Of a stretch of 64,000 nt of DNA, positions 5,879 through 62,973 are shown piece by piece. The translations under genes were made by a program, and so were the position numbers. Within the stretch, counting starts at the first letter, position 1. Every line of letters starts with the position of its first letter. This DNA comes from Dehalococcoidia bacterium. GTDB lineage: Bacteria; Chloroflexota; Dehalococcoidia; Lucifugimonadales; Australimonadaceae. The stretch spans positions 2,625,339-2,689,338 of the forward strand of contig OZ251500.1 in assembly GCA_965242755.1 (NCBI GenBank), written 5' to 3'. Under the pieces are notes generated by a model. The model had not been told where the DNA came from. It ran no database searches and saw only the letters and a list, made by a program, of their open reading frames with translations.

Positions 5879-5988
5879 AGCGCAGCCTCCTGATGCTCGC
5901 CCCGCTCGGCGCGGCGGGAATCATAGCGCCCTTTGTCCGGCGCGATGCGGTCTAGGGGCGCCTGCGCGCGAGGCGCTAGAATCGCCCT

Positions 5989-11800: not shown

Positions 11801-11941
11801 CTCGACGAGGACGTCGGGGCGGCCGCCGCCGTCGAGGACGCTGCCGGTCTGTTCGGCGCGGGCGCGCCAACTGCGGCGCAGGCGGTCGAGCGCCTCGCCG
11901 AGGGCGGCGTTGAGGGTGGGCTCATGAGTTGGGCCTGGCAT
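8819..11941 (-). CDS. MmeI-like (type IIG/IIL-architecture) candidate: N-terminal PD-(D/E)xK-like nuclease region, gamma-class N6-adenine DNA methyltransferase, C-terminal specificity-like domain
   Basis: 1040 aa. SAM motif I is VGDFACGTGTLL. Motif IV is NPPF (DLVIMNPPFTRP, + strand ~10341-10360). N-terminus has RPDVLVED...VVIEAER, resembling a restriction-nuclease core. C-terminal third resembles TaqI/MmeI-type TRDs. No neighbouring R, S or BREX genes. No obvious SD at the ATG. Confidence 0.65.
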   Translation of the reverse strand: MPGPTHEPTLNAALGEALDRLRRSWRARAEQTGSVLDGGGRPDVLVEDASGWPVVIEAERADHASAERDAIARLGRKVSGRDFVIETAIALVYPDDLTYLDGARLRDALDRTDALEYALYTRRAAEPPERLPEDGWVRGSVRDLAMLTHRAAAPAPRVEALAQAFEQGVEAAADAFTRRHRYGGELGADIARILGQYDDAAGQTRRMAMTVLMNALIFHSALAAAEFQVADEPGGPTRSVRMPALLQGVRSETFDPEELCAEWERILAVNYWPIFWTAKEMLRRMPPATAAGALAALWGAALSLIVGGVTRSHDLTGIVFQRLIADRKFLATFYTRPEAAALLAGLALPAARAPGGADWGDAETLASLQVGDFACGTGTLLSAAYQRLSLLHELHGGDPAALHAPMMKHGLVGLDVLNINVHLTAAMLAGSHPDTPFDGECLLTMPYGERYLRSNGNGKRNGNGRNGGNGNGKPKETVTVGSLDLLRGDVQAGLLGHAAAVTSGGRAPEEVRDLVSRVGHGKFDLVIMNPPFTRPTNHEAAHANVPNPAYAAFETSPEDQRAMSDAVKMLTEDSPSNDYAGLASHFVELAERKARPDGAIALVLPLSAMSGGSWESVRSQWRERYTDIIVVTISGAGSFDRSFSADTGMAECLVVARKGTPAAEPRGTFIALRRQVRSAAEAELLASEILRIRESGELRALEGDLGLSVVTIGARPRTANFYGIAADAPLPQTGPWPLVGVADGDLAQAAWHLSRGALPHIGRPATPKTALPITPLRNIARSGPVHRLVGSPTSASRGAFVVRKLQAGAVPTYPILWNHDNTSERTLVIPPDSQGEPRTTEEAERIQATAARAHYNLDFQFNAQSLIAAMTERPCIGGVAWPSVIFENPEHEYAFALWCNSTLGLLLHWWTANKTQSGRGRTTVTGIPNIPSLDTRALTDEQHAAAKSAFDAMRGLRFLPFDQIDEDPARAELDRRLLVDVLGLPESLCDENGPVDVLRRKLAREPQIHGGKKSRVVFDEARDAHGALVVTERSERRSDR

Positions 11942-12029
11942 AGGGAGAGTCTACACGAGCGCCCCGCCCCGCCCGCTAGGGGCGATTGTCGCGCGGGGGA
12001 AGGGGAGTTGCCCACGCGCGGTGCGCCTC

Positions 12030-12320
12030 CTGAACGCGCCCTCTGCGACATCTGCCTATTGCGCGGCGCCGCATCCGTTCCCTACGATGAACCGCGTCCA
12101 ACCGATGCGCGAGACAAGAGGAAGCCAATGAAGACCACGAGAAGCATGCGAACGGGATCGGCAAGCGCGACGGCCAATGTCTCAAATTGTCTCAAAATGT
12201 CTCATTTTGTCTCATTTCCGTCTCAAAACGTCTCATTAGCGTCTCAAACCGTCGCGCGCCGAACCGCCCGAAATACGGCCAACACCAACAAAAGAGGCCC
12301 CGATGACCCGAAATGAGACA
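12030..12320 (+). promoter_or_regulatory. Conserved leader/operator element, copy 1: promoter-like hexamers + 7 phased GTCTCA repeats + inverted repeat at start codon
   Basis: TTGCGC (12059-12064), 18-nt spacer, TACGAT (12083-12088). GTCTC cores at 12179, 12189, 12199, 12209, 12220, 12230 and 12241. Inverted GAGAC at 12315-12319. An inverted copy with the same layout, differing by point substitutions and one missing repeat unit, lies at 27340-27600. Confidence 0.6.
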
Positions 12321-12374
12321 TCCCCCAGGGCAAATTCAGCAAGCCCGCAACCTGACCGAAAACGAGGCCATACG

Positions 12375-13637
12375 ATGAACCACCCTCCCCTGAACGTGAA
12401 CCGCGAGCGCATGGACGCCGACGTCCGCCGCCTCGCCGAATTCACCGACCCCGCCCTGCCCTACACCCGCCGCGCCTTCTCCCCGGAGTACGCCGCCGCC
12501 CGCGAATGGCTCGCCCAGCGCTTCCGCGACGCCGGCCTCGTCACGCGCGTCGACGCCGCAGGCAACCTCATCGGACGGCTCGGCCCCAGAGACGGCCCCG
12601 TCCTCATGCTCGGATCCCACATCGACACCGTCGAGGCGGGCGGACGCTTCGACGGCGTCGTGGGCGTCGTCGGCGCGCTCGAAATCGCCCGCCGCATCCG
12701 CGAGACCGGCGCCGCGCTCGCGCATCCCCTCGAAATCGTGGACTTCGTCTGCGAAGAGCCCACCATCGTGGATATGAGCCCCCTCGGCAGCCGCGTGATG
12801 GCAGGCGACATCACCGCCGAAATGATCGCCGCCGCATACGCCCCCTCCGGCGAGCCGCTCGGCGAGGCGATAGCCCGACTCGGCGGCGACCCCGCCCGCC
12901 TCCATGAGGCGCGCCGCAAGCCCGGCGAAACGCTCGCCTACATGGAATTGCACATCGAGCAGGGCCCCGTTCTCGAGCGCGCCGGAATGGACGTCGGAAT
13001 CGTCACCGTCATCGCCGCCCCTTGCCGCGCGGTCGTCTCGCTCGTCGGCGTCGCCGACCACGCGGGCGCGACCTCGATGGCCGACCGCCGCGACGCGCTC
13101 GCGGGCGCCGCGGAACTCATCCTCGCCGTCGAGCGCGCCGCGAGCGCCCCAGACGTCGCGCAGGAAAGCGTCGGCACCGTCGGCTTCCTCCGCGTCAGCC
13201 CCAATATGGTCAACGTCATCCCCGGACGCGCCGACCTCACGGTGGAGGCCCGAAGCGCGCAGAGCGAGGCGCTCCTCTGGGTCCGCGAGGAGATTGAGCG
13301 TTCGCTCCATGAAATAGCCGCCCGCCGCGGCCTCGACGCGGCGATTGAATGGCGCCACTTGGAGGAGCCCGTCCCGATCCCCGTCGAAATGCAAGAGATC
13401 ATTGCGGAATCCGCAACCGATTTGCGAATGCGCGCAATGCGCCTCCCAAGCCGCGCATCCCACGACGCCGCCCGCCTCGCCCCCGTCGCTCCCGTCGGAA
13501 TGGTCTTCATCCCCTGCAAAGACGGGCGCAGCCACTGCCCCGAGGAATGGGCGGACGCGGACGACGTCGCCGCCGGAGCGGAGGTCCTGGGCCGCGCCCT
13601 CCTCCGACTCGACGCCCAGCATCGCCCTTCCCGTTAA
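12375..13637 (+). CDS. Zn-dependent M20-family amidase (hydantoinase/carbamoylase-type; allantoate amidohydrolase / N-carbamoyl-L-amino-acid hydrolase-like)
   Basis: LMLGSHIDTVEAGGRFDGVVGV, metal-ligand context DFVCEEP, MELHIEQGPVLE, PSRASHDAA, FIPCKDGRSHCPEE. The start is set at MNHPP. The ORF is open from 12303, whose ATG belongs to the repeated leader element. Confidence 0.85.
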   Translation: MNHPPLNVNRERMDADVRRLAEFTDPALPYTRRAFSPEYAAAREWLAQRFRDAGLVTRVDAAGNLIGRLGPRDGPVLMLGSHIDTVEAGGRFDGVVGVVGALEIARRIRETGAALAHPLEIVDFVCEEPTIVDMSPLGSRVMAGDITAEMIAAAYAPSGEPLGEAIARLGGDPARLHEARRKPGETLAYMELHIEQGPVLERAGMDVGIVTVIAAPCRAVVSLVGVADHAGATSMADRRDALAGAAELILAVERAASAPDVAQESVGTVGFLRVSPNMVNVIPGRADLTVEARSAQSEALLWVREEIERSLHEIAARRGLDAAIEWRHLEEPVPIPVEMQEIIAESATDLRMRAMRLPSRASHDAARLAPVAPVGMVFIPCKDGRSHCPEEWADADDVAAGAEVLGRALLRLDAQHRPSR

Positions 13638-13689
13638 GGAGGCGTCCGAATGCATGCGCGGAGACGGAATTCGGCGGGCGGCGCAACTT

Positions 13690-13833
13690 GGCGCAACAAC
13701 CGCCCGCGAAGCGGGAACTCGGGCGGCGCGAAGCGCCAACCCCCCTCTCCCTCTGGGAGAGGGGCCGGGGGTGAGGGTTGCCCCGCGTAGGCGGGAATCC
13801 AGTCGGCGCAAGCGCCAACCCCCCTCTCCCTCT
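13690..13833. repeat. Cluster of REP-like palindromic modules (CCCTCTCCCTCTGGGAGAGGGG hairpin; CCGCGTAGGCGGGAATCCAGTCGGCGCG module)
   Basis: Perfect short hairpins (ATTCCCGC-GTAG-GCGGGAAT type). The same modules recur at ~15.05-15.41, 20.73-20.86, 22.98-23.02, 27.12-27.30, 35.74, 37.67-37.93, 39.40-39.55, 54.07-54.10, 57.10-57.31 and 62.76-62.96 kb. Confidence 0.85.
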
Positions 13834-15047
13834 GGAGACCTTTGCATAACTGAGCGTTTCGCGCGATTGGGCAGTTCCGCGCCGCTCCGATGGCCATTTC
13901 GCCCCGTCTAGCCCCCCATAGGCCGCCCTCATCCCTCCCTGCTCGCCCCGTTTTCGGGGCTCCGCAGGGCCTCTTACCCCAAACGGACGCACTACCCCCT
14001 ACGCAATCGCGGCGCCCCGCGCCTCGCACAACCCGTCCGCGCGCCGCAAGTTGTACGCCATAACCTTGAACATCGCCTCCGCAACGTTCTTCTCCAGCCC
14101 CACGTACCGCGTCCGCCAGTACCCGTAACTCCGCTTCAGCGTCCCAAACACCCCTTCGACAGGCGCCCGAACCTTCGAAACCAGCGCGTTCCGCCTCCGC
14201 TGCCAATACGGCAACTCCGCCTGGTTCTTATGCGACCGATGCATGATCCGGTCATTGATGCCGCGCGCGCGTAACCGCTTCCGACGCTCCTTCGACTCAT
14301 ACGCCTTGTCCGCGTACACCGCCTTCTCGTCCCCCATGATCAGCGCGTCAGCGACGTCCGTGTCCGCCACGTTCGCAGGCGTCAACTCCACTCCGCGAAC
14401 CAGCCCGGAGACGCCGTCCATCCCGATGTGCAGTTTGTAGCCGAAGCGCGACTTCTTCCCCTTCCGCGTCCACGCGGCGTCAGGGTCCGTCTTGCTCCCC
14501 GCGCCCGCCTCCGACCCGGGGCGACGCGCCTGCGCCTCGATCACCGACGCGTCGATCAGCGTTCCCTTCTTCACCAGCAGCCCCTTCTTCTCCAACTGGC
14601 GGCCCACCTCCTCGAACAGCCGACGCGCGAGCCCCCGCTCCGCGACCGCTTTCCGAAAGCGGCTGATCGTCGAGTGGTCGGGAACCGCGTCCTGGAGCGT
14701 GAGCCCCGCGAACCGGCGGAACGACAGCCGGTCGGTCACCGCCTCCTCTATCGCGACGTCCGAGGCGTCATACCACTGTTGGAGGATGATGATTTTCACC
14801 ATCGTGAGGGGCGGGTAGGCGGGGCGGCCTTCAGTGGATGCGTAGAGGCCGCTGACCTGCTTGGCGACTTTGGGCCAATCGATCATCTCGTCGATGCGGT
14901 CGAGTTGGTCGTTGCGTCCGATGTGGTCGGGGACGAGGACGTCGATGAAGGAGGGTTCGCTGGTCTTGCGATGCATAGCAATCTCCTGGCGTTGGGGTGT
15001 GTTGCGGCCAATTGTGCGCGATGTCGAGGAGTTATGCAAAGGTCTCC
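13834..15047 (-). mobile_element. IS5-family insertion sequence (1214 bp) with 18-bp terminal inverted repeats GGAGACCTTTGCATAACT
   Basis: IRL is at 13834-13851. IRR is at 15030-15047 (reverse complement identical). It has a single DDE transposase ORF. It is inserted in the loop of a CCCTCTCCCTCT/GGGAGAGGG palindrome, with flanking TCT / TCA. Confidence 0.85.
13999..14976 (-). CDS. IS5-family DDE transposase
   Basis: 326 aa from ATG 14976 (MHRKTSEPSFIDVL...). Has an N-terminal DUF4096/HTH-like region (RPAYPPLTMVKIIILQQWY..SD), FGYKLHIGMD, VYADKAYES and the C-terminal VEGVFGTLKRSYG motif. The 5' extension to 15240 in the track is read-through into repeats. Confidence 0.9.
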   Translation of the reverse strand: MHRKTSEPSFIDVLVPDHIGRNDQLDRIDEMIDWPKVAKQVSGLYASTEGRPAYPPLTMVKIIILQQWYDASDVAIEEAVTDRLSFRRFAGLTLQDAVPDHSTISRFRKAVAERGLARRLFEEVGRQLEKKGLLVKKGTLIDASVIEAQARRPGSEAGAGSKTDPDAAWTRKGKKSRFGYKLHIGMDGVSGLVRGVELTPANVADTDVADALIMGDEKAVYADKAYESKERRKRLRARGINDRIMHRSHKNQAELPYWQRRRNALVSKVRAPVEGVFGTLKRSYGYWRTRYVGLEKNVAEAMFKVMAYNLRRADGLCEARGAAIA

Positions 15048-15146
15048 TCAGGGAGAGGGCAGCCGCGAAGCGGCGGGTGAGGGTTGCCTGCCCGCGTAGG
15101 CGAGAATCCATGCGGCGCGCAAGCGCCAATCCCGCCCTCTCCCTCT

Positions 15147-15291
15147 GGAGACCTTTGCATAACCTATCGTCATTCCCACGTAGGCGGGAATCCAGTCGGC
15201 GCGCAAGCGCCGCTCCTCTCCTACGTAAGCGCCGCGTCATTCCCGCGAAAGCGGGAACCTACTGGGGCAGAGGAGTTATGCAAAGGTCTCC
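15147..15291. mobile_element. MITE derived from the adjacent IS5-family element (145 bp, same terminal IRs, TCT target duplication)
   Basis: GGAGACCTTTGCATAAC at 15147 and its reverse complement ending at 15291. The interior consists of REP hairpins only. It is flanked by TCT/TCT inside the same palindrome type that the full IS occupies. Confidence 0.75.
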
Positions 15292-15535
15292 TCTGGGAGA
15301 GGGGCCGGGGGTGAGGGTTGCCCCGCGTAGGCGGGAATCCAGTCGGCGCGAAGCGCCAACCCCCTCTCCTTCTGGGAGAGGGGCCGGGGGTGAGGGTTGC
15401 CTCATTCCGTTAATAAAAATGGCGTAAATTCGTAATGAAAACGCTTGATTCCGCTATTCAAGCGTCGTATACTGACATCGTCGGCGGCTGAGGGCTGCCG
15501 GAGAACGAGCGGAGAGCGGAGAAAGGACAGAGGAG

Positions 15536-15751: not shown

Positions 15752-15929
15752 CCGCCTCCGAGACTGCCTTGACTGCGTAGGCGGTTCCCGGCCTAACCCC
15801 CTCTCCCGCTTGACGGAGAGGGATGGGGTAAGGGCGGAACAAACGCAACCCCCGCCTGCCCCATCTCCCGCTTGGCGGGAGAGGGATGGGGTGAGGGCAG
15901 AACAAAGAAAAGAAAGGAGGGCGACAGAG

Positions 15930-16082
15930 ATGATTCTCCTCAAGGCATGCGCCCACTGCGGCGGCGACGTTCTGTGCAGGAAGGGCATGGACGGCATCGA
16001 GTGCCGGTGCCTCCTGTGCAGCCGCGCGCTCGACCTGAAAACCGCCGCCGCCCTCATCCAGCAGCGCAAGACCGCTGCCTAG
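15930..16082 (+). CDS. Hypothetical small zinc-ribbon protein (50 aa)
   Basis: ATG at 15930 is preceded by AAAGGAGG. Has CxxC...CxC..C spacing (CAHCGG...ECRCLLC). The upstream part of the track ORF lies in REP repeats. Confidence 0.45.
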   Translation: MILLKACAHCGGDVLCRKGMDGIECRCLLCSRALDLKTAAALIQQRKTAA

Positions 16083-18918: not shown

Positions 18919-20726
18919 TGGTTCACATCATGCGAATGTATGCGTTGGCGGGCTGCATCGCGCTGCTGGGAGCGCTGGCTTGCGGCGGCGGGGAGCAGGC
19001 GCCGCAAGCGTCGGACTTGCCTTGCGCGAGCGAGGATGCGTCCTGCGCTCCGCGGGACGTGAGCGGTGTGGATGTCATTGGCGGGGGCGCATCGCATGGG
19101 GCGGCGTTTGGCCTGCCTCCGGACGCGCCTAGCGTGGAAGGCGTGCTGGAGAAGGGGCCCCGCGAGTCCGGCCAAGCCCCTGTGCATATCGCAATCCGAG
19201 GCATAGCTCAATCCGAGTCTGTCCGATGCGACTGGCACAGCGTCGTCCGGACCTTGGATTACCGCGAGAATGAAATACGCTTCTGGTTGGCCATTGACGA
19301 GGACGAGGCGTTGCCGGCTCCAAGCGAAGTGGAACGACGGCTAATGTCGCATGTGAACGGAATGCGCGCCGACCACCGGCCTGAGTGGACGGCTTGGGCC
19401 TCCGCGCTCGCCAATGGAGGCGTTTCTTCCGAGTACAACAGGCTGAAATGCTATGCTGACTACGCCGTTCAAGGCTATGTTCTCGGCAACGGACCGCGCG
19501 CGCTTACGGTGGCTTATGACAGACACGAGCGAGGCCCCTCCTACGGTCTGTACAGTCGCGCGCATGCGGCCGGGGCTTACCGCGGGGCGGCCAAACTCGG
19601 CGAAGCGGAGCATGCGACTGCGCTGGCGGAGATGGCTTATGAAGCCGCAGCGGAATTGAAGCAGGAGATTGGGTCTCGTCAGAGCGTCGTGTTTCTCACG
19701 CCAATGGGCGCGTTCGGCCCTGTCGCAGTCGAAGCATGGCAAGCAGTTGAGCAGTGGGATTTGCAACGAGCCGATGACGGGACGGTCAATGCCGTTCGCT
19801 ATGGCGCTCGAGAGGGGGATAGTGAGCAAACGCAAACGCTTGTCAACCTGCAAAGGCGCGTTACAACGGCGGCGGGAAGCGACGCTTTCGCGGGGAAGCG
19901 CATCGCCAACGCGAGCGGACTCGCGCAGTACTACCGAGACATCGGCGCCTACGGCGACATCACGCCCGGCGACGGCGAAACGGCGACGTTCACGCCGGCG
20001 CAGCCGCCTCCGAAGTGCGGCTCCGCGGTGGCGGATCACGCGGCGAATCCGGGCCTTGTTCAGGACTGCATGGCGCTGCTCGCGGCGAAGGACGAGTTGC
20101 GCGGAACGGGGGCGCTCAACTGGAGCGAAAGCCGCGCCATCGCCGATTGGGACGGCGTGAAAACGACGGGAACGCCCGCGCGAGTGACGCAGTTGCGAAT
20201 CGTGGACGGACGCCTAACCGGAACGCTCCCGGCGTCGTTGGGCAAACTGCCCGCGCTGACGCGGCTGTTTCTGAACGGGGGCGAGTTGACAGGCGCGATC
20301 CCGCCGGAGTTGGGCGACCTCGCGGCGCTGGAGCAGTTGCGCCTGAACGACAACAAGTTGACGGGGAGCATCCCGGCGGAGTTGGGCGGCCTAGCGAATC
20401 TGCGCGAGTTGTGGATTTCGGACAACGACCTCACCGGGTCAATCCCGTCGGAATTAGGGAGCCTGAGCAAGTTGGAGGTCTTAAGTCTGCTGAACAACGG
20501 CCTCACGGGCTCGATCCCGGCGGAGTTGGGAAGCCTCGGCAAGTTGACGCAATTGAGCCTAAGCAACAACGCGCTCAAGGGAAGCATCCCTGCGGAGTTG
20601 ACGAACTTGCGGAGCCTAGCCTGGCTGCGCTTAGGCGGCAACGCCCTAACAGGCTGCATCCCATCGCCTCTGCGAAGCGTCGCCGACCAAGACATCCACC
20701 GCCTCCGCAACCTCGCGGAGTGCTAG
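18918..20726 (+). CDS. Lipoprotein with unknown N-terminal domain and C-terminal plant-type leucine-rich repeats
   Basis: Signal/lipobox LLGALACGG. The C-terminal ~200 aa has an LRRNT-like cap (DCMALLAAKDEL..ALNWSE...W.GV) plus eight 24-residue repeats LxxLxLxxNxLTGSIPAELGxLxx. Start overlaps the RCC1 stop (TGATG). Confidence 0.85.
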   Translation: MVHIMRMYALAGCIALLGALACGGGEQAPQASDLPCASEDASCAPRDVSGVDVIGGGASHGAAFGLPPDAPSVEGVLEKGPRESGQAPVHIAIRGIAQSESVRCDWHSVVRTLDYRENEIRFWLAIDEDEALPAPSEVERRLMSHVNGMRADHRPEWTAWASALANGGVSSEYNRLKCYADYAVQGYVLGNGPRALTVAYDRHERGPSYGLYSRAHAAGAYRGAAKLGEAEHATALAEMAYEAAAELKQEIGSRQSVVFLTPMGAFGPVAVEAWQAVEQWDLQRADDGTVNAVRYGAREGDSEQTQTLVNLQRRVTTAAGSDAFAGKRIANASGLAQYYRDIGAYGDITPGDGETATFTPAQPPPKCGSAVADHAANPGLVQDCMALLAAKDELRGTGALNWSESRAIADWDGVKTTGTPARVTQLRIVDGRLTGTLPASLGKLPALTRLFLNGGELTGAIPPELGDLAALEQLRLNDNKLTGSIPAELGGLANLRELWISDNDLTGSIPSELGSLSKLEVLSLLNNGLTGSIPAELGSLGKLTQLSLSNNALKGSIPAELTNLRSLAWLRLGGNALTGCIPSPLRSVADQDIHRLRNLAEC

Positions 20727-20874
20727 GGGCGACCGCGCGGGGGCAACCCTCACCCGCCGCTGCGCGGCTGCCCTCTCCCAGAAGGAGAGGGCGGGATTGG
20801 CGCGGCGCCGCCGCATGGATGCCCGCCTACGCGGGTCGGGCGGCGGGTTATGCAAAGGTCTCCTTAGGGAGGAG

Positions 20875-23866: not shown

Positions 23867-23957
23867 ATGGCGGTTCCACGTTCCATGAGCGTTGGCCGAG
23901 TGCAGCGCAGCAATATGGTATGCTCAACATAGGATTCACTCACAGGAGCGGACGAGA

Positions 23958-24770
23958 ATGCGAATCTACCTCGCCAATGTCGGCGCGAATGTCTCCCTGT
24001 TCAACAAGCGCGGGCTTGCCAGCCCCGTCTTTGAGGACGGGCGTTTCGAGTTCCTGCCCATTCCTGCTGATAACCCGCGGCTGGACGAGTCGCCGAATGC
24101 GATTCACTACTCCGACCTGCGCTCCCACTACGACCCTGCCCAAGCCTTGACTTCCTACATACCTGACCACCTCTGGGGCAAGGCTGTCCACAACTCCCCC
24201 GAGTTCGAGAAATTCACCTATTGCGACGCTTGCGACGACTTCCCTCGCGCCGCGAACCTCAAGGAGGTTCAGCAGGGGGATGTCTTGCTGTTCGTGGCCG
24301 GTCTGAGGCTTTGGATCGACGGCAAGAGGACGAGCGAGTACGACTTGCACCTGATCGGGGGCTTTCGTATAGAGGAGGCGTTGCGCTGCGAGGGCGCGCC
24401 ACCGGATGAGAGAGTGGAGGACAGGTTCGCAGGAAACGCCTACGTGATCAACGGGCAGGAGACTGGGCGCTGGGATCCCGTAGTCGGCAACTGGCTATTC
24501 GCGGGCTCCCAAGACGGGTCGCGCCGCTTCAACAAGGCCGTCCCGCTCAATAGGGAAATCTGCGAGCAGGCGTTCGCGGCCGCTAACGGCGCCCCGTGGC
24601 GATGGGGCCGACAATCGGAGACCGCGACGGTCGCATCGTACACCCGCACCGCGCGCCGCTTCCTAGACACGAGCAACCCCGAAGAGGCGAAGCGCGCCGC
24701 CGTCCTGCGCGATTGGGTGGCGCGGCATACAGGAGAGGCGGATGCGGCGTTGCTTGGCGACGGAGCGTAG
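23958..24770 (+). CDS. Hypothetical protein, possibly Nmad3-like (nucleotide-modification-associated domain 3)
   Basis: ATG at 23958 with AGGAG SD. The N-terminus MRIYLANVGAN...GLASPVFEDGRFEFLPIP and the later GDVLLFVAGL...HLIGGFRIEE resemble my recollection of Nmad3-type proteins. This is not verified by search. Confidence 0.35.
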   Translation: MRIYLANVGANVSLFNKRGLASPVFEDGRFEFLPIPADNPRLDESPNAIHYSDLRSHYDPAQALTSYIPDHLWGKAVHNSPEFEKFTYCDACDDFPRAANLKEVQQGDVLLFVAGLRLWIDGKRTSEYDLHLIGGFRIEEALRCEGAPPDERVEDRFAGNAYVINGQETGRWDPVVGNWLFAGSQDGSRRFNKAVPLNREICEQAFAAANGAPWRWGRQSETATVASYTRTARRFLDTSNPEEAKRAAVLRDWVARHTGEADAALLGDGA

Positions 24771-24779
24771 TCGACGCGG

Positions 24780-25151
24780 CTAGGCCAACTTCTTCTTGAG
24801 GTTATCCCAAGTCCAAACGATCATCTCGCCGGCGCCTTTCATCGGCTGCCACTTCTTCCCCTGAGGCATGAGCTGAAACCGGCGCTTGTTCATGCCCGCG
24901 GCGATCGCTATCTCCTTGAGGACGCCGGGGGCGTTATGCGTGTTCTCTCCCAATATCACGACGAACACTTCGCAGCCCTCGATGGCCTTCCGCGCCTTGG
25001 TCAGCCACTCTTGCTCCGGCTTCCTCTCTTGGAGGGAAACATCGGTCACCGAAAATGGCGAATCTTGCCGTTTCGCTTGCGCGATCAAGTCTTCCTTGAG
25101 GTCGAGGTCGGTTCCGTAGTCGAAACTGACGAACACTTTCGTCTTGGCCAT
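24780..25151 (-). CDS. TIR-like domain protein (DUF1863 / MTH538 / ThsB-like)
   Basis: KVFVSFDYGTDLDL...I..CEVFVVILGENTHNAPGVLKEIAIA matches the DUF1863 TIR-like pattern, including the conserved Glu context. Locally reduced GC. Convergent with 23958-24770 (9-bp gap). Confidence 0.7.
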   Translation of the reverse strand: MAKTKVFVSFDYGTDLDLKEDLIAQAKRQDSPFSVTDVSLQERKPEQEWLTKARKAIEGCEVFVVILGENTHNAPGVLKEIAIAAGMNKRRFQLMPQGKKWQPMKGAGEMIVWTWDNLKKKLA

Positions 25152-25215: not shown

Positions 25216-27057
25216 CTACACCGCGCACTCGCCCTCTCCGCGCTCCACCTTGTAGAGGATCGTCTTCCCCCAGTCTATGTAGGAGTCGAGGTTCTCCTTG
25301 TTGAGCGCGCCCACCTCGCGGTACTTGGCGGCGATCTCCTCGAACGGCGCCGTGCCGGAGCGGTCGACGAAGTCGTTGAACGTCTCGCCGTCCGTCCGGC
25401 TGGCCTGGTAGTGGGAGAGGACGTCGTCGAGGAAGGCGGGGACGCGCTTGGCGGGCACCTTGCTCTTGACGCGGTGGCCGAACCGCGCCGCGTCCTGGTT
25501 GCCGTAGTTGCCGGCGAGGAACACCTCGTAGGCGGGCGCCTGGTTGCCGTCGCCCTTCATCGCCGCGCCGTGAAAGCCGATGTTGGCGATGTGATGGCGC
25601 GAGCATCCGTTGGGGCAGCCGCTGACCTTGACGTGCAGATTCTTGACGAGCGGGTCGTCCGCGCCGTAGTCGCGGATGCTCTTCCGCAGCGCCTCCGCGA
25701 CGCCCATCGAGGAGGTGATGCCCATCTTGCAGCTGTCCGTGCCGGGGCAGGAGACGACGTCGGTGATGGAGTTGGCGCCGTCCTCGGCGAGGCCGATGGC
25801 CTTGAGCGCCGTCCAAACGTCGTGCAGGCGGCCCTCCGGAACCCAGCGGTAAAGCAGGTTCTGCTCCGTCGTGGCGCGGACGCCGCCCGCGAACTTCCGC
25901 GCGATCTCCGCGAGCGCGGGGAACTGATGCGCGTAGATGTCGCCGAGCGGCAGCGTGACGTAGACAATGCAGTAGCCGTCCTGCCGCTGCGGGCGGACGT
26001 TGGACTCGCGCCACGCGAGGAACTCCGGCTCGTCGAGGGAGGGGTCGGCGGGGACGGGCGCCGGCGGCTGATCGATCATCTCCGGGGGCAACTCCATCCA
26101 GGGGGAGGGATCGAAGTCGGCGCTCGCCCAATCGCCCTCCATCTCCCTCTCGACCTCGGCGCGGAAGGCGTCGATGCCGACGCGGTCGACGTAGAACTTG
26201 ATGCGGGCGCGCATTCGGTTTTTGCGGAGTTCGTCCGTCCGGTGGAACACGCGAATGGCGGCCTCCGCGACCTTCAGGTACTCCGCGACGGGGACGAATT
26301 CGTAGAGCGTCCAGGCGAGGCGCGGCATTATGGACGTGCCGCCGCCGATGCGGATCTCGAAGCCCTTCTCCGGCGGGCTGCCGTCTTCGAGGTCGCGCAG
26401 TTTGGGAATGAACGCAAGGTCGTGGATGTCGGCCACGACCTCGTCGTCGCCGCCGCTGGAGAAGGACGTCTTCCATTTGCGGGGGAGCGCCTGCGTGTAC
26501 TCGTGGCGGAGGAAGTATCGGGCGTAGGCGGCGAGGTAAGGCGCGACGTAGAAGGGCTCCTCCGGCTTCACGCCGGAGAGGGGGTCGCCCGCGACGTTCC
26601 GCACCGTGTTGCCGCACGCCTCGCGGGTGACGAGCCCGGCTTCGCCGAGGATCCGCATCACGTCGGGCGTGTCGGCGAGCGGAACGAAGTGGATCTGCAT
26701 GTTCTCGCGCGTCGTGACGTGCCCCTTCTTGAGGGGGGCGTGCTTGGCGACGACCTCGCCGAAGGCGTCGAGGTGGTCGGCGGTGAGGGCGCCGCCGGGG
26801 ATCTTGATCCGCATCATCTGGACGTCGGGCTGGCGCTGGCCGTACACGCCTCGGACGAGGCGGTACATAATGAACTGCTCTTCGCTGGGCCACTCGCCGT
26901 TGAGGAAGCGGGTGGCTTCCGTCTCGAAGTCGTCGGCTTCCTCCGGGAGGTAGGGGAGGACGCTTTTGGCGTAGTCGTAGGTTTTCTTTTCCGCCGGGGA
27001 TTTGACGCCCCTAATGATGGGGCCTGCGGGCGCGGTGACGGGCGCGGTGGTGGTCAT
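25216..27057 (-). CDS. sir: Ferredoxin-dependent sulfite (or nitrite) reductase hemoprotein, siroheme/[4Fe-4S]
   Basis: SCPGTDSCKMGIT and VSGCPNGCSRHHIANIGF cluster/siroheme-binding motifs. Duplicated NIR_SIR architecture. ATG at 27057 with AGGAG SD. Confidence 0.9.
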   Translation of the reverse strand: MTTTAPVTAPAGPIIRGVKSPAEKKTYDYAKSVLPYLPEEADDFETEATRFLNGEWPSEEQFIMYRLVRGVYGQRQPDVQMMRIKIPGGALTADHLDAFGEVVAKHAPLKKGHVTTRENMQIHFVPLADTPDVMRILGEAGLVTREACGNTVRNVAGDPLSGVKPEEPFYVAPYLAAYARYFLRHEYTQALPRKWKTSFSSGGDDEVVADIHDLAFIPKLRDLEDGSPPEKGFEIRIGGGTSIMPRLAWTLYEFVPVAEYLKVAEAAIRVFHRTDELRKNRMRARIKFYVDRVGIDAFRAEVEREMEGDWASADFDPSPWMELPPEMIDQPPAPVPADPSLDEPEFLAWRESNVRPQRQDGYCIVYVTLPLGDIYAHQFPALAEIARKFAGGVRATTEQNLLYRWVPEGRLHDVWTALKAIGLAEDGANSITDVVSCPGTDSCKMGITSSMGVAEALRKSIRDYGADDPLVKNLHVKVSGCPNGCSRHHIANIGFHGAAMKGDGNQAPAYEVFLAGNYGNQDAARFGHRVKSKVPAKRVPAFLDDVLSHYQASRTDGETFNDFVDRSGTAPFEEIAAKYREVGALNKENLDSYIDWGKTILYKVERGEGECAV

Positions 27058-27119
27058 AGGCTGCTCCTGCGCGGACTCTTGGGATAAGGATACCACAGGC
27101 TGCGGGGGCGGGCGCGCGG

Positions 27120-27300
27120 GTTGCGCCCTGCGCCCCGCCCTGACCGCGAAAGCGGAAGCCTACCGAACGCGAAGCGCCAATACCAGCCTCTCCTTCTGGA
27201 GACCTTGCTTCTGGAGACCTTTGCATAACCTACCGTCATTCCCGCGTAGGCGGGAATCCAGTCGGCGCGACCGCGCCGACTGGAGGCTGCTGCAACGAAG
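27120..27300. repeat. REP-like modules plus solo IS5-type inverted-repeat copy (GGAGACCTTTGCATAAC at 27213)
   Basis: Has the hairpin CATTCCCGCGTAGGCGGGAATCCAGTCGGCGCG and a duplicated CTGGAGACCTT. It lies between leader copy 2 and the sir start. Confidence 0.8.
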
Positions 27301-27339
27301 GGGAGCGCCAGGAGTTGGCGGTCGGTGAGTTCGTCGCCG

Positions 27340-27600
27340 GTGGGCGTCTCATTTTGGGTCATTGGGGCCTCCTTTTTCCGTGTTGGCCTTGTTTCGGGCG
27401 TTTCGGCGCGCGACGGTTTGAGACGCTAATGAGACGTTTTGAGACAGGAATGAGACATTTTGAGACAATTTGAGACATTGGCCTTGCGCTCCTCTCCGTT
27501 CGCGCTTGTCGCCCGCCCTTTGTTGGGGTTTGGGGGCGTGATGGATCCATCGTAGGGGCGGGGTTGGCGGTCGCGCAAGGGGCATGTGTCGCAGTTGCGG
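27340..27600 (-). promoter_or_regulatory. Conserved leader/operator element, copy 2 (inverted relative to copy 1), upstream of sulfite reductase
   Basis: On the minus strand: TTGCGC (27573-27578), 18 nt, TACGAT (27549-27554). Six GAGAC cores on the + strand at 27420, 27431, 27441, 27452, 27462 and 27472. A complementary GTCTC lies at 27346-27350, just after the ATG at 27362. Confidence 0.6.
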
Positions 27601-33356: not shown

Positions 33357-34457
33357 CTACAGCCGCTCGATGATGAGATCGGTCATATGCTCCGTGGTGG
33401 AGAACTCCGCGCCGGGAGGAGCGAGGTCCGCGGTCCGATGGCCGTCGCTCAGGGCGCGCTCGACGGCGGACTCGAGCGCGGCGGCCTCCTCGGCGAGGCC
33501 GAATGAGTATCTCAGCATAAACGCCGCGCTGAGGATGGAGCCGATGGGGTTCGCCTTGCGCTGCCCCGCGATGTCGGGCGCGCTGCCGTGGCTGGGCTCG
33601 TAGAGGCCGCGAATCTTGCGGGGCTTGCCGCGCGCGTCCGCGCCCGGCAGCCCTGCGAGGCTCGCCGACGGCAGCATGCCGAGCGACGCCGAGAGCACCG
33701 CCGCCTCGTCGGAGATGATGTCCCCGAACATATTCTCCATCACCATCACGTCGAAACTCGCCGGCCGCGTGATCAGCAGCATCGCGCAGGAGTCCACCAA
33801 CTGATGCTCCAACTCGACATCGGGATAGTCGGCGGCGACCTCGTTGGCGACCTCGCGCCAGAGGCGGGACGATTGCAGCACATTGGCCTTGTCGACGGAG
33901 GTGAGTTTGCGCCGGCGCCCGCGCGCGAGTTCGAATCCGACGCGCAGTATCCGCTCGATCTCCTTCTCGGAGTAGAGGAGCGTGTCCACGCCTTTGCGCC
34001 CCGCCTTCGTCGCCCAGCGCTTCTTGGGCGGCGCGTAGTAGAGGCCGCCGGTGAGTTCGCGGAGAATCACCATATCCGCGCCGCGGACGCGCTCGTCCTT
34101 GAGCGGGCTCGCGCCCTCCATGCCGGGGAAGACCTTGACCGGGCGGATGTTGGCGTAGAGGCCGAGCGCCTTGCGGAGCCCGAGTATCGCCGCCTCCGGG
34201 CGGACGGGCGCGTCGTCCCACTTGGGCCCGCCCACCGCGCCGAACAGCACGGCGTTCGCCTGCCGGGCGGCGCGGACGGTCTCGTCGCGCAGGGGCGTCC
34301 CGTAGGCGTCTATCGCGCCGCCGCCAACGACGTCCGTCCGGTAGCGGAACGTATGCCTCCAGCGCGCCGCGACCGCATCGAGCGCGCGTTTCGCGGCCTC
34401 CGTAACCTCGGGCCCGACGCCGTCGCCGGGGAGAACCATGATGTCGAATGTGGGCAT
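33357..34457 (-). CDS. leuB: 3-isopropylmalate dehydrogenase
   Basis: MPTFDIMVLPGDGVGPEV..., RELTGGLYY, NMFGDIISDEAA, SHGSAPDIAG. Confidence 0.95.
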   Translation of the reverse strand: MPTFDIMVLPGDGVGPEVTEAAKRALDAVAARWRHTFRYRTDVVGGGAIDAYGTPLRDETVRAARQANAVLFGAVGGPKWDDAPVRPEAAILGLRKALGLYANIRPVKVFPGMEGASPLKDERVRGADMVILRELTGGLYYAPPKKRWATKAGRKGVDTLLYSEKEIERILRVGFELARGRRRKLTSVDKANVLQSSRLWREVANEVAADYPDVELEHQLVDSCAMLLITRPASFDVMVMENMFGDIISDEAAVLSASLGMLPSASLAGLPGADARGKPRKIRGLYEPSHGSAPDIAGQRKANPIGSILSAAFMLRYSFGLAEEAAALESAVERALSDGHRTADLAPPGAEFSTTEHMTDLIIERL

Positions 34458-34524
34458 TTTGCGTTACCTCGCTCTTGCGAAAGAGCCGCCTCATCGTAAG
34501 GGGCCGGGGCGCGACGGCGCAAGG
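34352..34524. repeat. Direct repeat DR1: native leuB 5' end (first ~35 codons) plus ~65 bp upstream
   Basis: Near-identical to 37499-37665 and 39221-39385 (same orientation). Confidence 0.9.
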
Positions 34525-37321: not shown

Positions 37322-37498
37322 GTGGATCTTCTCCGTCAGGTTGCGCGGGCATTGTGCGCCGCCGGGCGGCGCCGCGCAAGGGGCGCGTGTCCGATTGGGG
37401 GATGGATTCGCGTAGGCGAGAGGGCGGGGCCGGCACGCCTACACGGGCAGCTGCGTCGTGTTTGGGGTACCCCTACTCCCGGGCGCGCACGAAATTAC

Positions 37499-37665
37499 GC
37501 CTCCATCGCGCCGCGACCGCATCGAGCGCGCGTTGCGCGGCCTCCGTAACCTCGGGCCCGACGCCGTCGCCGGGCAGAACCATGATGTCGAATGTGGGCA
37601 TTTTGCGTTGCCTCGCTCTTACGAAAGCCGCCTCATCGTAAGGGGCGGGGAGCGACGGCGCAAGG
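37499..37665. repeat. Direct repeat DR2: leuB' 5' fragment copy
   Basis: Encodes MPTFDIMVLPGDGVGPEVTEAAQRALDAVAAR then diverges. Preceded by the shared junction GGGCGCGCACGAAATTAC (37481-37498). Confidence 0.9.
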
Positions 37666-37872
37666 GGCGTATGGCGGCGTTGTCATTCCGCGTAGGCGGC
37701 ACCTAGCCCACCGGGGGCGCTCCATCCTTCGTAATCGTCGCCCGCCTACTGACCGTCATTCCCGCGTAGGCGGGAATCCAGGAACCCGCGTAGGCCGCTG
37801 CGGGCGCTCGACCTTCCAGCGCCTCATCATCGCCCGCGTAGTCAGGCTCCTCTTCCGCGAAGAGGAGCGGCG

Positions 37873-39132
37873 CTATCGCGCCGACTGGATGTCCCGCCTA
37901 CGCGGGCAGGACGGTAGATTACGCAAAGGTCTCGTTGAGGAATGCCCGGAGTATGGCCGGCTGCGGGAGTTCGGCGAGCGGCCTCCGTATGCGCGGTCGT
38001 GGTCGCGCGCCTCTTTGACGATGAGGAGTTCGTGGGAGGCTTTGACGTGGTGGTTCGTTCCGTTCTCGATGCGGTTCTTGCCGATGCGCGTTTCGCCTTG
38101 CCCAAGCGTGTATTGCCATTCGACCTCGATGATCTTGCAGTCGGCGTACCACTCGCGGATCGGTTCGCAGTCGTTGTAGGAGAGGACGAATCCCCCCTCG
38201 TGGCGGCGCAGGAGGTCGCGCAGGAGGTCGTGGCGGAAGTTCGCGTGGTGGATGGGGAAGTTGCGCTGCGGGTAGATGCCGCGGAACATTTTGCTGTCGC
38301 CGTCGAGGTAGTAGGGCGGGTCGCAGTAGAGGAAGTCGCCGGAGTGGGCGGGGATCGTGTCCTCGAATCCGCCCTGCGTCACGGAGAGGGTTGGGCAGGA
38401 GAAGCGCTCCACTTTGGCGACGAGCCGCTCGTAGCGGACTTCGTCCTCGTAGATTTTGGACATCCAGCCGAGGAAGCCTGGCCCGTAGGCGAGGTTGTGG
38501 TTGAACCAGTAGTGGGCGGCGAGTTCGAGGGGGTCGGCGATGGGGCGCGTTCGCGTCCAATGCTCCTTGAGGCGCTGCTTGATCTGCCGGTAGCGCTGCT
38601 GGGTCGGCTCCCATTGCCTGATGCGGTCGGCGAGCGCTTTGGGGGCGCTCAACTGGACTTCCCAGTAGTTGGTCAGGACGTCGAAGACGTCGTAGCCCTG
38701 CACGGGGACGCCGAGTTCTCTGGCGCAGGCGATTTCGACGGAGCCGCCGCCGATGAAGGGGGAGACGACGCGGGAGAGGCGGCTAGGGAGGTTTTCGACG
38801 ACGTGGCCGACGGCGAGGCTTTTGCCTCCGGCGTAGCGGAGGGGGAGGCCGTTGTATCTGCCGTATTTGTAGCGTCCGGCGCTGCGGAGGGAGGCGAGGA
38901 AGGCGTCGCGTGTGCCGCGTCCGTCGAGGGCGGCTTGTCCGCGCAAGGGCTTGTAGGCGGCGCGGGGCTCGGCGAGCGCCAGAGCGTCCCGCACTGCCGG
39001 TGACAGGCGAGACGGCCATTCGCCAGCGTATGCGGGCTCGACGTGGTCGACGACGTCCTCGACGACTTGGTCCTCGTCGCGCAAGGCATCGTTCTCTCGC
39101 AAGCGCACCTTCAAGCGTTCAATATCCACCAT
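37873..39132 (-). CDS. Dam-like (D12 class) N6-adenine DNA methyltransferase, apparently orphan
   Basis: LRYAGGKSLAV...VVSPFIGGGSVE (motif I region) and FLYCDPPYYLDG (DPPY). ATG at 39132. The 3' end reads into a REP/IS-IR repeat, so the exact C-terminus is uncertain. Confidence 0.8.
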   Translation of the reverse strand: MVDIERLKVRLRENDALRDEDQVVEDVVDHVEPAYAGEWPSRLSPAVRDALALAEPRAAYKPLRGQAALDGRGTRDAFLASLRSAGRYKYGRYNGLPLRYAGGKSLAVGHVVENLPSRLSRVVSPFIGGGSVEIACARELGVPVQGYDVFDVLTNYWEVQLSAPKALADRIRQWEPTQQRYRQIKQRLKEHWTRTRPIADPLELAAHYWFNHNLAYGPGFLGWMSKIYEDEVRYERLVAKVERFSCPTLSVTQGGFEDTIPAHSGDFLYCDPPYYLDGDSKMFRGIYPQRNFPIHHANFRHDLLRDLLRRHEGGFVLSYNDCEPIREWYADCKIIEVEWQYTLGQGETRIGKNRIENGTNHHVKASHELLIVKEARDHDRAYGGRSPNSRSRPYSGHSSTRPLRNLPSCPRRRDIQSAR

Positions 39133-39220
39133 GCGCCGTACCTTATATCCAACGCCCGGCCAACGCAACCATGCGCCCAGCCCCGTGCGCGCCTACCCCC
39201 ACGGGCGCGCACGAAATTAC

Positions 39221-39385
39221 GCCTCCAGCGCGCCGCGACCGCATCGAGCGCGCGTTGCGCGGCCTCCGTAACCTCGGCCCCGACGCCGTCGCCGGGCAGA
39301 ACCATGATGTCGAATGTGGGCAATTGCGTTGCCTCGCTCTTGCGAAAGCCGCCTCATCGTAAGGGGCGGGGCGCGACGGCGCAAG
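39221..39385. repeat. Direct repeat DR3: leuB' 5' fragment copy
   Basis: Encodes MPTFDIMVLPGDGVGAEVTEAAQRALDAVAAR. Preceded by the same junction GGGCGCGCACGAAATTAC (39203-39220). Confidence 0.9.
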
Positions 39386-39539
39386 CGGCGGGTGGCGGCG
39401 GTTGGCACCGGTAGGTTCCCGCTTTCGCGGGAATGACGTGGCGGCGGGATGGCTTGGGGACGGGGCGCGGGGCACCCCGTCGTGGCGCTGTCGCGCCGAC
39501 TGGATTCCCGCCTGCGCGGGAATGACGGAGGTTATGCAA

Positions 39540-39945
39540 AGGTCTCGTTGAGGAATGCCCGGAGTATGGTCGGCTGCGGGAGTTCGGCGAGCGGCCTCCG
39601 CAGGCGCGGTCGTGACCGCGCGACTCTTTGGCGATGAGGAGTTCGTGGGAGGCTTTGACGTGGTGGTTGGTTCCGTTCTCGATGCGGTTTTTGCCGATGC
39701 GGGTTTCGCCTTGCCCAAGCGTGTACTGCCATTCGACCTCGATGATCTTGCAGTCGGCGTACCACTCGCGGATCGGTTCGCAGTCGTTGTAGGAGAGGAC
39801 GAATCCCCCCTCGTGGCGGCGCAGGAGGTCGCGCAGGAGGTCGTGGCGGAAGTTGGCGTGGTGGATGGGAAAGTTGCGCTGCGGGTAGATGCCGCGGAAC
39901 ATTTTGCTGTCGCCGTCGAGGTAGTAGGGCGGGTCGCAGTACCAG
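39540..39945 (-). pseudogene. 5'-truncated copy of the Dam-like methyltransferase (C-terminal ~135 aa only)
   Basis: YCDPPYYLDGDSKMFRGIYPQRNFPIHHANFRHDLLRDLLRRHEGGFVLSYNDCEPIREWYADCKIIEVEWQY... is near-identical to 37930-38335. Homology stops abruptly at ~39945. Confidence 0.85.
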
Positions 39946-46059: not shown

Positions 46060-46353
46060 CTCGAATGCTGACGTCGAAGTTCGGGCGCCTGTTGAGGGCG
46101 TGTTGGGGACGCTGAAGCGGAGTTACGAGTACTGGCGGACGCGGCGGGCGGACGGGTTGTGCGAGGCGCGCGCAGGGGCGATTGCGTAGGGGATGGACTG
46201 TCCGTTTGGGCGTAGGAGGCCTGCGGAGCCCTGAAAACGGGGCGAGCAGGGAGGGATGAGGGCGGCCTATGGGGGTTAGATGGGGCGAATTGGCCATCGG
46301 AGCGGCGCGGAACTGCCCCAATCGGCCAAACGCCTAGTTACGCAAATGTCTCC
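46060..46353 (+). mobile_element. Remnant of the IS5-family element (transposase 3' end with internal deletion + 150-bp end + terminal IR)
   Basis: Encodes ...VRAPVEGVLGTLKRSYEYWRTR/RADGLCEARAGAIA*, against VRAPVEGVFGTLKRSYGYWRTRYVGLEK...RRADGLCEARGAAIA* in the intact copy. 46195-46353 is the reverse complement of 13834-13998, ending in GGAGACATTTGCGTAAC. Confidence 0.85.
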
Positions 46354-46403
46354 ATCGGGAGAGGCGCGTTCTCGGCGCTGCGCGTCGCCAATCCAAACCG
46401 GCG

Positions 46404-57099: not shown

Positions 57100-57310
57100 A
57101 TGCCCGGAACGCAGCCGCGCACGCTAACCCGGGGAAACCGCCCTGCCCGCGTAGGCGGGAATCCAGGCGGCGCGAGGCGCCAAGACGGGGCGTTGCGCCC
57201 GTCCCCATGCCATCCCCCAGGCTCCGTCATTCCCTCGAAGCGGGAACCTACTGGAGGCAATCTGCGCCCTCGCCCTTGACCGCGTAAGCGGGAACCTACT
57301 GGGAACGACC
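57100..57310. repeat. REP-like palindromic module cluster
   Basis: CCCGCGTAGGCGGGAATCCAGGCGGCGCG, CATTCCCTCGAAGCGGGAACCTACTGG and CGCGTAAGCGGGAACCTACTGG. Confidence 0.8.
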
Positions 57311-62736: not shown

Positions 62737-62973
62737 CCGCGGACCGGGGCGCGCCTCAGGCGCGGCAGCCTGGCGGACATCGCCTGCGCCGACTCGCCTA
62801 CGCCGGCGCCGAGCGCCAACCCCGTCCTCTCCTTCCGGGAGAGGGCAGCCGCGAAGCGGCGGGTGAGGGTTGCGGCGGCGCGTAAGCGCCAAGACGGCGC
62901 GGAGCGCCCCCCCATCATCCCCGCGAAAGCGGGAACCTCCCTGCGCCTGAGTTACGCAAACGTCTCTGCTAGA

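Follow-up and report, generated by a model that had tools for sequence, protein, structure and literature searches.

Background

In the R1 parC/ParR system, 11-bp direct repeats lie around the system's own promoter, and ParR is a ribbon-helix-helix protein. The boxes of OmpR/PhoB, GlnR and SARP regulators (Pho boxes, for example) overlap or abut the -35 hexamer, and RNA leaders of the TRAP/HutP type reiterate a motif with a period of 5-7 nt. In the pac region of SPP1/SF6-type phages, direct repeats extend across the promoters into the 5' end of the gene for the small terminase G1P, a helix-turn-helix (HTH) protein, and A/T runs alternating with G/C favour wrapping of the DNA (PMC4737164). Adjacent HTH motifs in small terminase rings are approximately one B-DNA turn apart, and the DNA-binding domain has little sequence specificity and prefers bendable DNA (PMC4737164). 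Here we describe an element that occurs twice in a 64-kb stretch of a Dehalococcoidia genome (contig OZ251500.1; hereafter the window), once upstream of an M20 amidase gene and once upstream of the sulfite/nitrite reductase gene sir. Each copy contains six or seven GTCTCA units repeated at the helical period. We propose, with moderate confidence, that the element is the orphaned and partly exapted control region of a gene for a terminase-like HTH protein and that the phased repeats are the binding platform of that protein.

Like the pac region, the locus combines a terminase-homologous HTH gene with repeats that span the promoter region and the gene start, an arrangement found in both window copies and in two related loci, L087 and L156 (six to eight phased units). 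The alternation of A/T runs with G/C and the spacing of about one turn between ring HTH motifs are further parallels (PMC4737164). Unlike the pac region, the locus has no large terminase, portal or phage gene nearby, the HTH gene is truncated, metabolic genes lie downstream, and six or seven near-identical hexamers form one phased run in place of three different box types. Iteron-type operators and centromeres such as R1 parC share with the locus direct repeats of helical period beside the gene of the presumed binder, an expected cooperative oligomer, and divergence of the repeats among relatives. Here, however, the protein is of the terminase-like HTH type, a partition ATPase is absent, the repeats lie downstream of the promoter, and one inverted unit lies over the start codon.

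Two other kinds of system share the design of the repeats but not their setting. The OmpR/PhoB, GlnR and SARP boxes likewise have a core of 6-7 bp and an A/T spacer of 4-5 bp arranged head to tail every 10-11 bp, whereas the array described here begins approximately 90 nt downstream of the -10 hexamer (12088 to 12179) and adjoins a gene of the terminase-like HTH family. The TRAP/HutP leaders resemble it in the reiteration of a short motif within a 5' leader segment of low structure and differ from it in that the present period is 10-11 nt, units occur in both orientations, and neither an Rfam match nor a fold signal was obtained. The element could well be a repeat platform of the pac-like or iteron-like kind. 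We found no GTCTCA or TGAGAC repeat operators in the literature, and a BLAST search with the element against plasmid and phage collections gave no match.

Results

Reading and alignment of the two regions showed that the reverse complement of positions 27340-27600 (copy 2) is colinear with positions 12045-12320 of the plus strand (copy 1), which confirms the colinearity proposed in the first-pass annotation of this DNA. A repeat search of the window also listed the pair, as inverted repeats at 12188-12326 and 27339-27477 (pair I1). The parts follow the same order in both copies: a housekeeping-type promoter, a variable leader of approximately 85 nt, six or seven helically phased units, a ribosome-binding site, and first codons that include an inverted TGAGAC.

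In copy 2, which lies on the minus strand, a GCGACA motif (27587-27592) is located approximately 8 nt 5' of a -35-like TTGCGC hexamer (27573-27578) that is identical to its counterparts in copy 1 and the orthologues; a -10-like TACGAT hexamer (27549-27554) follows within the conserved block CCCTACGATG. The GCGACA motif is kept in both window copies and in the related loci L121, L123 and L158, and is absent at the leuB promoter discussed below. Next come the variable leader part (27477-27548), an array of six GTCTCA units with a period of 10/11 nt and A/T-rich spacers (27419-27476; on the plus strand, TGAGAC starts at 27419, 27430, 27440, 27451, 27461 and 27471), and a post-array segment (27363-27418) with a Shine-Dalgarno (SD)-like AAGGAGG at approximately 27369-27375. 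The promoter block of copy 1 (12045-12088, plus strand) consists of GCGACA at 12045-12050, TTGCGC at 12059-12064 and TACGAT at 12083-12088, and its array (12179-12246) contains seven units, which start at 12179, 12189, 12199, 12209, 12220, 12230 and 12241 and hence are 10, 10, 10, 11, 10 and 11 nt apart. The earlier reading of six cores in copy 2, one fewer than in copy 1, was therefore correct, as was that of the same two hexamers, separated by 18 nt, in both copies. Both copies also share the SD-ATGACCCRAAATGAGAC start region, as had been noted, with ATG at 27362 and 12303 and a purine-rich ribosome-binding site in each.

The arrays stand out from their surroundings: their G+C content is 38-41%, compared with 67% for the window, and G makes up only 12% of the sense strand. 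Two-core patterns occurred seven and four times in the window, every time inside the two arrays, against shuffle expectations of 0.12 and 0.15. As to the nature of the element, we rejected a mobile repeat of the repetitive extragenic palindrome (REP) or miniature inverted-repeat transposable element type and an insertion sequence (IS) end, for there are just two copies in 64 kb and neither a terminal inverted repeat nor a target duplication. The true REP-like family of the window has a different sequence, CCCGCGTAGGCGGGAATCC.

Conservation between the two copies is strongly mosaic. The hexamers are identical at all 12 positions and the arrays at 64 of 66 (97%, with a one-unit indel), whereas the spacer between the hexamers matches at only 9 of 18 positions and the variable leader at 36 of 66 (55%, with a further 18 gap columns). 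The segment from the array to the inverted GAGAC is intermediate (61/71, 86%), and two more short blocks are identical, CTGCGACA 5' of the -35 hexamer and CCCTACGATG around the -10 hexamer. Similarity had been said to stop directly after the inverted GAGAC, and it does: the next 10 columns match at 6 positions between the copies, which is close to chance, versus at least 9 of 10 between copy 1 and its orthologues. The pairwise comparison that the first-pass annotation had called for thus gave a clearly non-uniform divergence, with hexamers and repeats kept over diverged spacers, which argues for constraint rather than recent duplication alone.

The annotation had read the same pattern as selection on a promoter and had suggested a small regulon. 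Constraint is supported by the mosaic divergence; the regulon is not, since the hexamers are generic. The pattern TTGCGC-N16-19-TACGAT has five matches in the window against 0.02 expected, and the three outside the element belong to leuB: one is its promoter, and the other two are partial duplicates in which this promoter is joined to 5' coding sequence. TTGCGC-N17/18-TACGAT is very likely a generic promoter consensus of this genome, so that conservation of the hexamers indicates working promoters and not a dedicated regulon. The leuB promoter (TTGCGC-N18-TACGAT) with the first approximately 40 codons is present in one intact and two partial forms, at 34347-34522, 37491-37680 and 39213-39400 on the minus strand, and an additional 300-nt repeat (37916-38215 and 39529-39828) follows the leuB duplicates. 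This genome habitually copies fragments that comprise a promoter and the 5' part of a gene.

The ATG of copy 2 opens the remnant of an HTH gene. Its open reading frame (ORF), MTQNETPTGDELTDRQLLALPFVAAASS (27279-27362, minus strand), aligned from Met1 with residues 1-28 of the family protein P0123 at 54% identity in a tblastn search, and a profile hidden Markov model (HMM) of four family members matched it with an E value of 4.5e-5. This was the sole significant match among 1257 six-frame segments of the window (next best, 1.3). Another member, P0260, which was found by exhaustive search, begins MTQNETPDTNALSLRQLDALPYLVSSPTLSEAARLA. An inverted TGAGAC unit occupies codons 4-6 of the window ORF (27351-27346). 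Homology to the HTH family stops at 27279, exactly where a REP-like repeat starts (27282; the repeat covers 27210-27282 and belongs to families D3 and D11 and to pairs I7, I11 and I13). Because the ORF matches the family N-terminus and is cut at this repeat, we take copy 2 to be what is left of a truncated gene, namely its promoter, its leader and 28 initial codons. The observation that the short ORF downstream of the element enters a REP-like insertion ahead of the sir start (ATG at 27057) holds. In copy 1, the corresponding remnant is ATGACCCGAAATGAGACA (MTRNET; 12303-12320, plus strand), with TGAGAC at 12314-12319, and homology to copy 2 ends there.

The same architecture is found at intact genes of this family. 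Loci were drawn from a scan for three GTCTCA cores, which gave, among the matches listed, L087, L032 and several Dehalococcoidia arrays mixed with unrelated iteron-like and microsatellite arrays and is no census of true copies; a scan of viral contigs gave L248 and L188, likewise among the matches listed. In the Chloroflexota locus L087, seven GTCTCA/GCCTCA units are followed by three TGAGAC units over the ATG of a gene that encodes MRQIETDFS...LTDRQLSVLPHLL...GIGRATLYRWL, and in L156 approximately eight degenerate 11-nt units are followed by ATGAATCAGAATGAGAC. Both loci keep the order of the window copies, namely a promoter, 100-130 nt, approximately seven phased units, 30-55 nt, and initial codons that contain TGAGAC. 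In L032 and in L248, three TGAGAC units lie at most 30 nt from the start of the family member. Among the approximately 240 array-bearing loci listed, which were picked by DNA pattern alone, there were three such adjacencies of array and family, with the family match right beside the array. The TGAGAC units of the viral contig L248 (9153-9178) lie directly 5' of the family member, which is followed by a DnaG/DnaB primase-helicase.

The start of the family genes looks constrained at the nucleotide level. Residue 5 is GNN-coded (G, V, D, E or A) in 41 of 53 members with Asn4, compared with a background of 35% (p 4e-10), and the Asn codon 4 was always AAT in the copies inspected at the DNA level despite their high G+C content. 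The start therefore reads ATGNNNCARAATGNNAC, with a second ATGNNAC unit 10 nt past the start codon. The N-terminus MxQN[G/V/D/E/A]T is common in the family (P0244-P0393) and corresponds to 27351-27362 and 12303-12314 in the window; the AAT codon within it implies a conserved out-of-frame ATG 10 nt past the start codon. Near-consensus TTGACA-type promoters are located 150-270 nt upstream of the intact cassettes (L127:118-152, L157:~857-890, L156:5739-5790 and, on the minus strand, L087 at ~1400-1450). They hold GAAC-N4-GT(G/T/A)C palindromes that resemble the LexA boxes of Gram-positive bacteria and Dehalococcoides, and the window copies are without them.

Family proteins are 135-160 aa long, with an N-terminal HTH followed by long helices, and the family comprises 10,086 representatives at E <= 1e-3. 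Profile comparisons indicate that it is homologous to the phage small terminase of the Pfam PF13022 / phBC6A51 type. Searches against Pfam and PHROGs gave only sub-threshold matches to PF13022 and to small terminases (terS); however, hhalign matched the family to a viral ORF over 98 columns with 97% probability and an E value of 1e-10, and the same ORF, which has a PF13022 match of 9e-25, is immediately followed by genes for a large terminase and an SPP1-type portal. An AlphaFold2 model of moderate confidence (predicted local distance difference test score, pLDDT, 72) matched best, among PDB entries, the phBC6A51 nonamer 2ao9, followed by the small terminases of Sf6 and NV1. In Chloroflexota, the members form a two-gene cassette with an uncharacterised partner of approximately 95 aa in an ordinary chromosomal setting with no large terminase. 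In L032, a Planctomycetota island, and in the viral L248, the family member is upstream of a primase-helicase instead of a large terminase.

The amidase gene downstream of copy 1 (M20 amidase / N-carbamoyl-amino-acid hydrolase; 12375-13637, plus strand) starts at 12375, as in its homologues of 418-425 aa. The homologues of its amidase and sir place the organism in the Dehalococcoidia/SAR202 group of Chloroflexota. Orthologous copies of the element are present at the amidase in L121 (98% protein identity), L123 (93%) and L125 (76%), and the element is absent in L126 (74%). The first-pass annotation had noted that the two copies share the SD-ATG start region. We found that the ATG of copy 1 is lost in L123, where the position reads GCGACCC, that the frame closes at a stop after 17 codons in L121, and that in the window it is in frame with the amidase only through a 1-nt indel. 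The ATG lost in L123 and the frame closed in L121 show that it is not the amidase coding start. An upstream ORF, a leader peptide and an N-terminal extension of the amidase were rejected on the same ground, as neither start nor frame is conserved in L123 and L121. A second promoter between the array and the ATG of copy 1 was also considered; none was convincing or had a consensus, and the segment is partly deleted in L121.

Comparison of copy 1 with L121 revealed a different pace of change in the array: the flanks are 84-88% identical and the array 63%. All seven cores in L121 are GGCTCA or CGCTCA, with unit number and phasing kept. L125 has three direct units (GTCTCA, GTCCCA and GTCCCA) and three inverted ones (TGGGAC, TGAGAA and TGAGAC). 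Since the arrays are 97% identical within the genome, yet only 63% identical to that of L121 at 98% amidase identity, they evolve in concert within a genome and turn over between genomes. Gene conversion between the inverted copies, slippage, or co-evolution with a trans-acting factor could each account for such concerted evolution.

The relation of copy 2 to sir proved to be looser than had been proposed. The first-pass annotation had treated the element as a leader of sir (25216-27057, minus strand; NIR_SIR and NIR_SIR_ferr domains), which does not agree with our finding that the copy 2 ATG opens the truncated HTH gene and that a conserved extended -10-like sequence lies past the REP-like repeat. 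This sequence, TGTGGTATCCT (27087-27097, minus strand), is a candidate proximal sir promoter. Its counterparts in sir orthologues are TCTGGTATGCT in L159 (93% sir identity), TGTGCTATACT in L158 (85%) and TGTGCTATGCT in L160 (82%). A sir transcript starting downstream of the REP insertion had been named as evidence that would speak against the shared leader, and the proximal -10 conserved in four lineages gives computational support for such a start. Upstream of sir, L158 retains the promoter in homologous form (GCGACAC...TTGCGCG-N17-CCCTACCATG), together with a REP insertion and a decayed remnant that reads MTRNGQ..., and has no GTCTCA array; L160, the lineage at 82% identity, has no remnant of the element there. 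On these computational grounds, sir appears to have its own proximal promoter, and copy 2 would be at most an additional upstream one.

The sir orthologues in L158 (9880-9975) and L160 (~5850-5990) are preceded by a short Cys-rich leader ORF (MCACCCRP and MRSCCCWS, respectively), then by a terminator-like G+C hairpin and a T-rich tail, an arrangement that resembles a cysteine-sensing attenuator. In the window, sir is without the Cys-rich leader and only the proximal -10 is kept. For annotation, the label "leader of sir" is consequently no basis for inferring sulfur regulation, given that in the relatives sir has a proximal promoter and a Cys-rich leader peptide.

Discussion

The fragment homology, the architecture shared with intact genes, the mosaic conservation and the concerted array evolution are direct observations on the loci compared. 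From them we infer that the HTH protein binds the array, that it does so on DNA rather than RNA, and that the element affects amidase or sir. If the element is the control region of the HTH gene, copy 2 would retain 28 codons, cut by a REP-like element, and copy 1 would be an older leftover of 6 codons that became fused to the amidase upstream region and has been vertically inherited. The phased units would provide the platform where a terminase-like HTH oligomer assembles, with neighbouring HTH motifs contacting successive turns of bendable DNA, a mode of binding that has been proposed for small terminase rings and pac DNA. At the intact genes, binding to the array would let the protein regulate its own gene or would mark a pac-like site; the amidase would come under the same control through the promoter and array that it captured, if the protein is made elsewhere in the genome. 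The low sequence specificity and the preference for bendable DNA described for small terminases (PMC4737164) would fit the turnover of the cores with the phasing kept.

Several findings weigh against this proposal. No intact HTH-family gene and no partner gene lie in the 64-kb window, and phage structural genes, terminase and portal included, are absent from it as well as from the surroundings of L156, L127 and L087. Structurally, the resemblance to terminases is weak (Foldseek E 0.07, TM score approximately 0.4-0.47, model pLDDT 72). No phased array was present upstream of 29 further family loci from the metagenome and viral scans; the array is thus not universal in the family, these being distant relatives. 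Short arrays with other cores also occur in relatives that lack a nearby HTH gene. In L121, the cores of the array have changed and the start-proximal TGAGAC has not, a poor fit with one protein reading both. Finally, each array sits within the transcribed leader, 90-130 nt past the promoter, and wherever orientation was recorded it pointed the same way as the gene that follows, so that a role at the RNA level is possible. The single unknown regulator suggested by the first-pass annotation is reasonable as a trans-acting DNA-binding factor, with the HTH family as candidate, although the window holds no intact copy.

Binding to DNA is moderately favoured over binding to RNA, for the period equals one helical turn, units occur in both orientations, and loci with TGAGAC only exist. 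In an RNA leader, the GUCUCA units would pair as a redundant anti-start with AAAUGAGAC, or would bind an RNA-binding protein or Rho, and would thereby control translation or read-through. The array is situated between promoter and start codon in every complete example and shares the orientation of the gene at the window copies and at L087, L156, L068, L071, L062 and L018. It is approximately 70 nt long, G-poor and C-rich (12% G, 27-29% C). Minimum-energy folds pair the third unit with the start-proximal unit over 13 bp in copy 1 and 8 bp in copy 2, but these folds are no better than those of shuffled sequences (z +1.44 and -0.67), and no Rfam family reached its gathering score in the window, with only chance-level matches at E up to 10 in 11900-12500. 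Direct and inverted flavours agree locus by locus (GTCCCA with TGGGAC in L125, CTGCTCA with TGAGCAG in L158); L121, however, changed seven cores without a compensating change at the start, which leaves a 7-bp pairing, and L032 and L248 carry the TGAGAC orientation only and therefore have no pairing partner. A period of 10/11 nt is meaningful for B-DNA and not for single-stranded RNA. We consider an RNA leader unlikely.

It is likewise improbable that the element is a dedicated cis-regulatory leader of amidase and sir read by an unrelated chromosomal factor, for example of the OmpR/PhoB or SARP type, in a small regulon. The 6-7-bp core and 4-5-bp A/T spacer at an 11-bp period do follow the design of Pho boxes and SARP sites, and the copy at the amidase is retained at 98, 93 and 76% protein identity, as is a related remnant upstream of sir at 85% identity. 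In addition, genes for a Rieske oxygenase, transporter-like proteins and membrane proteins in other Dehalococcoidia are preceded by three-unit GTCTCA arrays that have T-rich spacers and share the orientation of the gene. But the array is approximately 90 nt downstream of the -10 hexamer and neither overlaps nor abuts the -35 hexamer, the start region encodes the N-terminus of an HTH protein rather than forming a neutral leader, and the hexamers are generic. Moreover, sir has a conserved proximal promoter, and the lineage at 82% identity is without the element.

The element might also be inert debris of a decayed mobile or prophage-derived cassette, whose copies stay alike through gene conversion between inverted repeats 15 kb apart; the array would turn over by slippage, and the promoters would persist only through their likeness to the generic consensus. 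Consistent with decay, this genome duplicates promoter-plus-5'-gene fragments, as the two partial leuB copies illustrate, and is full of REP-like repeats in addition to an IS; copy 2 is truncated, the L158 remnant upstream of sir has decayed differently, and an intact regulator gene is missing from the window. The wholesale replacement of the array in L121 resembles turnover and not purifying selection. Yet 12 of 12 identical hexamer positions amid 50-55% identity are unlikely by drift (0.55^12 ~8e-4), unit number (seven) and 10/11 phasing persist across the window, L121, L123 and L087 even with changed cores, and the amidase copy survives to 76% protein identity. Debris is accordingly a doubtful explanation.

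A bolder version of the control-region proposal is that a Chloroflexota (Dehalococcoidia-like) lineage domesticated a phage small-terminase-type protein as a transcription factor, the oligomer of which would wrap phased 5' arrays that co-evolve, in each genome, with its own gene start, and that amidase, sulfite reductase and Rieske oxygenases joined its regulon by capturing the 5' end of the regulator gene; we rate this as a long shot. Still more speculative is the idea that the two arrays, which face inward, act as pac-like sites of the chromosome, from which the 15-kb segment between them would be packaged into capsids or gene transfer agents.

If the control-region proposal is correct, an uncultured Chloroflexota lineage would express a metabolic gene from a promoter-operator captured from a phage-terminase-like DNA-binding gene. 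The proposal supplies a concrete protein-DNA pair: a family member such as P0260 or P0123 and an array of seven helically phased hexamers. The replacement of the cores at 98% amidase identity bears on whether small terminases read sequence or shape and phasing.

Other features of the window and related loci

The window copies form an inverted pair and point toward each other from the two ends of a 15-kb segment that reaches from the amidase gene to sir. Recombination between them would invert this segment and exchange the genes 3' of each promoter. No phage genes lie between the two copies; the genes there include those for RCC1-repeat, leucine-rich repeat, TIR domain and Nmad3 domain proteins. 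A gene for the nucleotide-modification-associated Nmad3 domain (23892-24770, plus strand) and a ThsB/TIR-like gene (24780-25151, minus strand) are located directly downstream of sir, and the related locus L121 likewise contains a ThsB_TIR gene.

Immediately 3' of the amidase gene is an IS with a DDE_Tnp_1 transposase (13999-15240, minus strand); the sequence of its end recurs, inverted, at a distance of 32 kb (13817-14172 and 46079-46370). The REP-like family (CCCGCGTAGGCGGGAATCC..., often with TTATGCAAAGGTCTCC and CCCTCTCCC...GGGAGAGGG modules) is abundant in intergenic regions, with copies at 13700-13835, 15048-15400, 20723-20871, 27210-27282, 37753-37941, 39404-39528, 57146-57187 and 62813-62947; one of these truncates the HTH-gene fragment.

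Phased arrays of this design are a recurrent feature of 5' regions, and may be linked to the window element by homology or function. In L126, a gene-free stretch of 1.7 kb (13400-15110) contains five mini-arrays, each composed of AAACTTTTAATTC, three 10-nt units and TTCCNATCGT. Their cores differ (GTCTCA, GTTCCA, GTTGCA, CGCTCA and GGCCCG), and each adjoins REP-like DNA. One mini-array is found upstream of a Rieske oxygenase gene in L071, which belongs to the same genome as L126. L158 has six or seven CTGCTCA units at a spacing of 10-11 nt and one inverted GTGAGCAG (15830-15965), approximately 350 nt upstream of a gene for a 66-aa protein. On the Firmicutes-type viral contig L188, three TGAGAC units (1686-1711) are flanked on one side by a gene for a RinA/ArpU-like sigma-r4 regulator and on the other by an HNH - Terminase_4 small terminase module.

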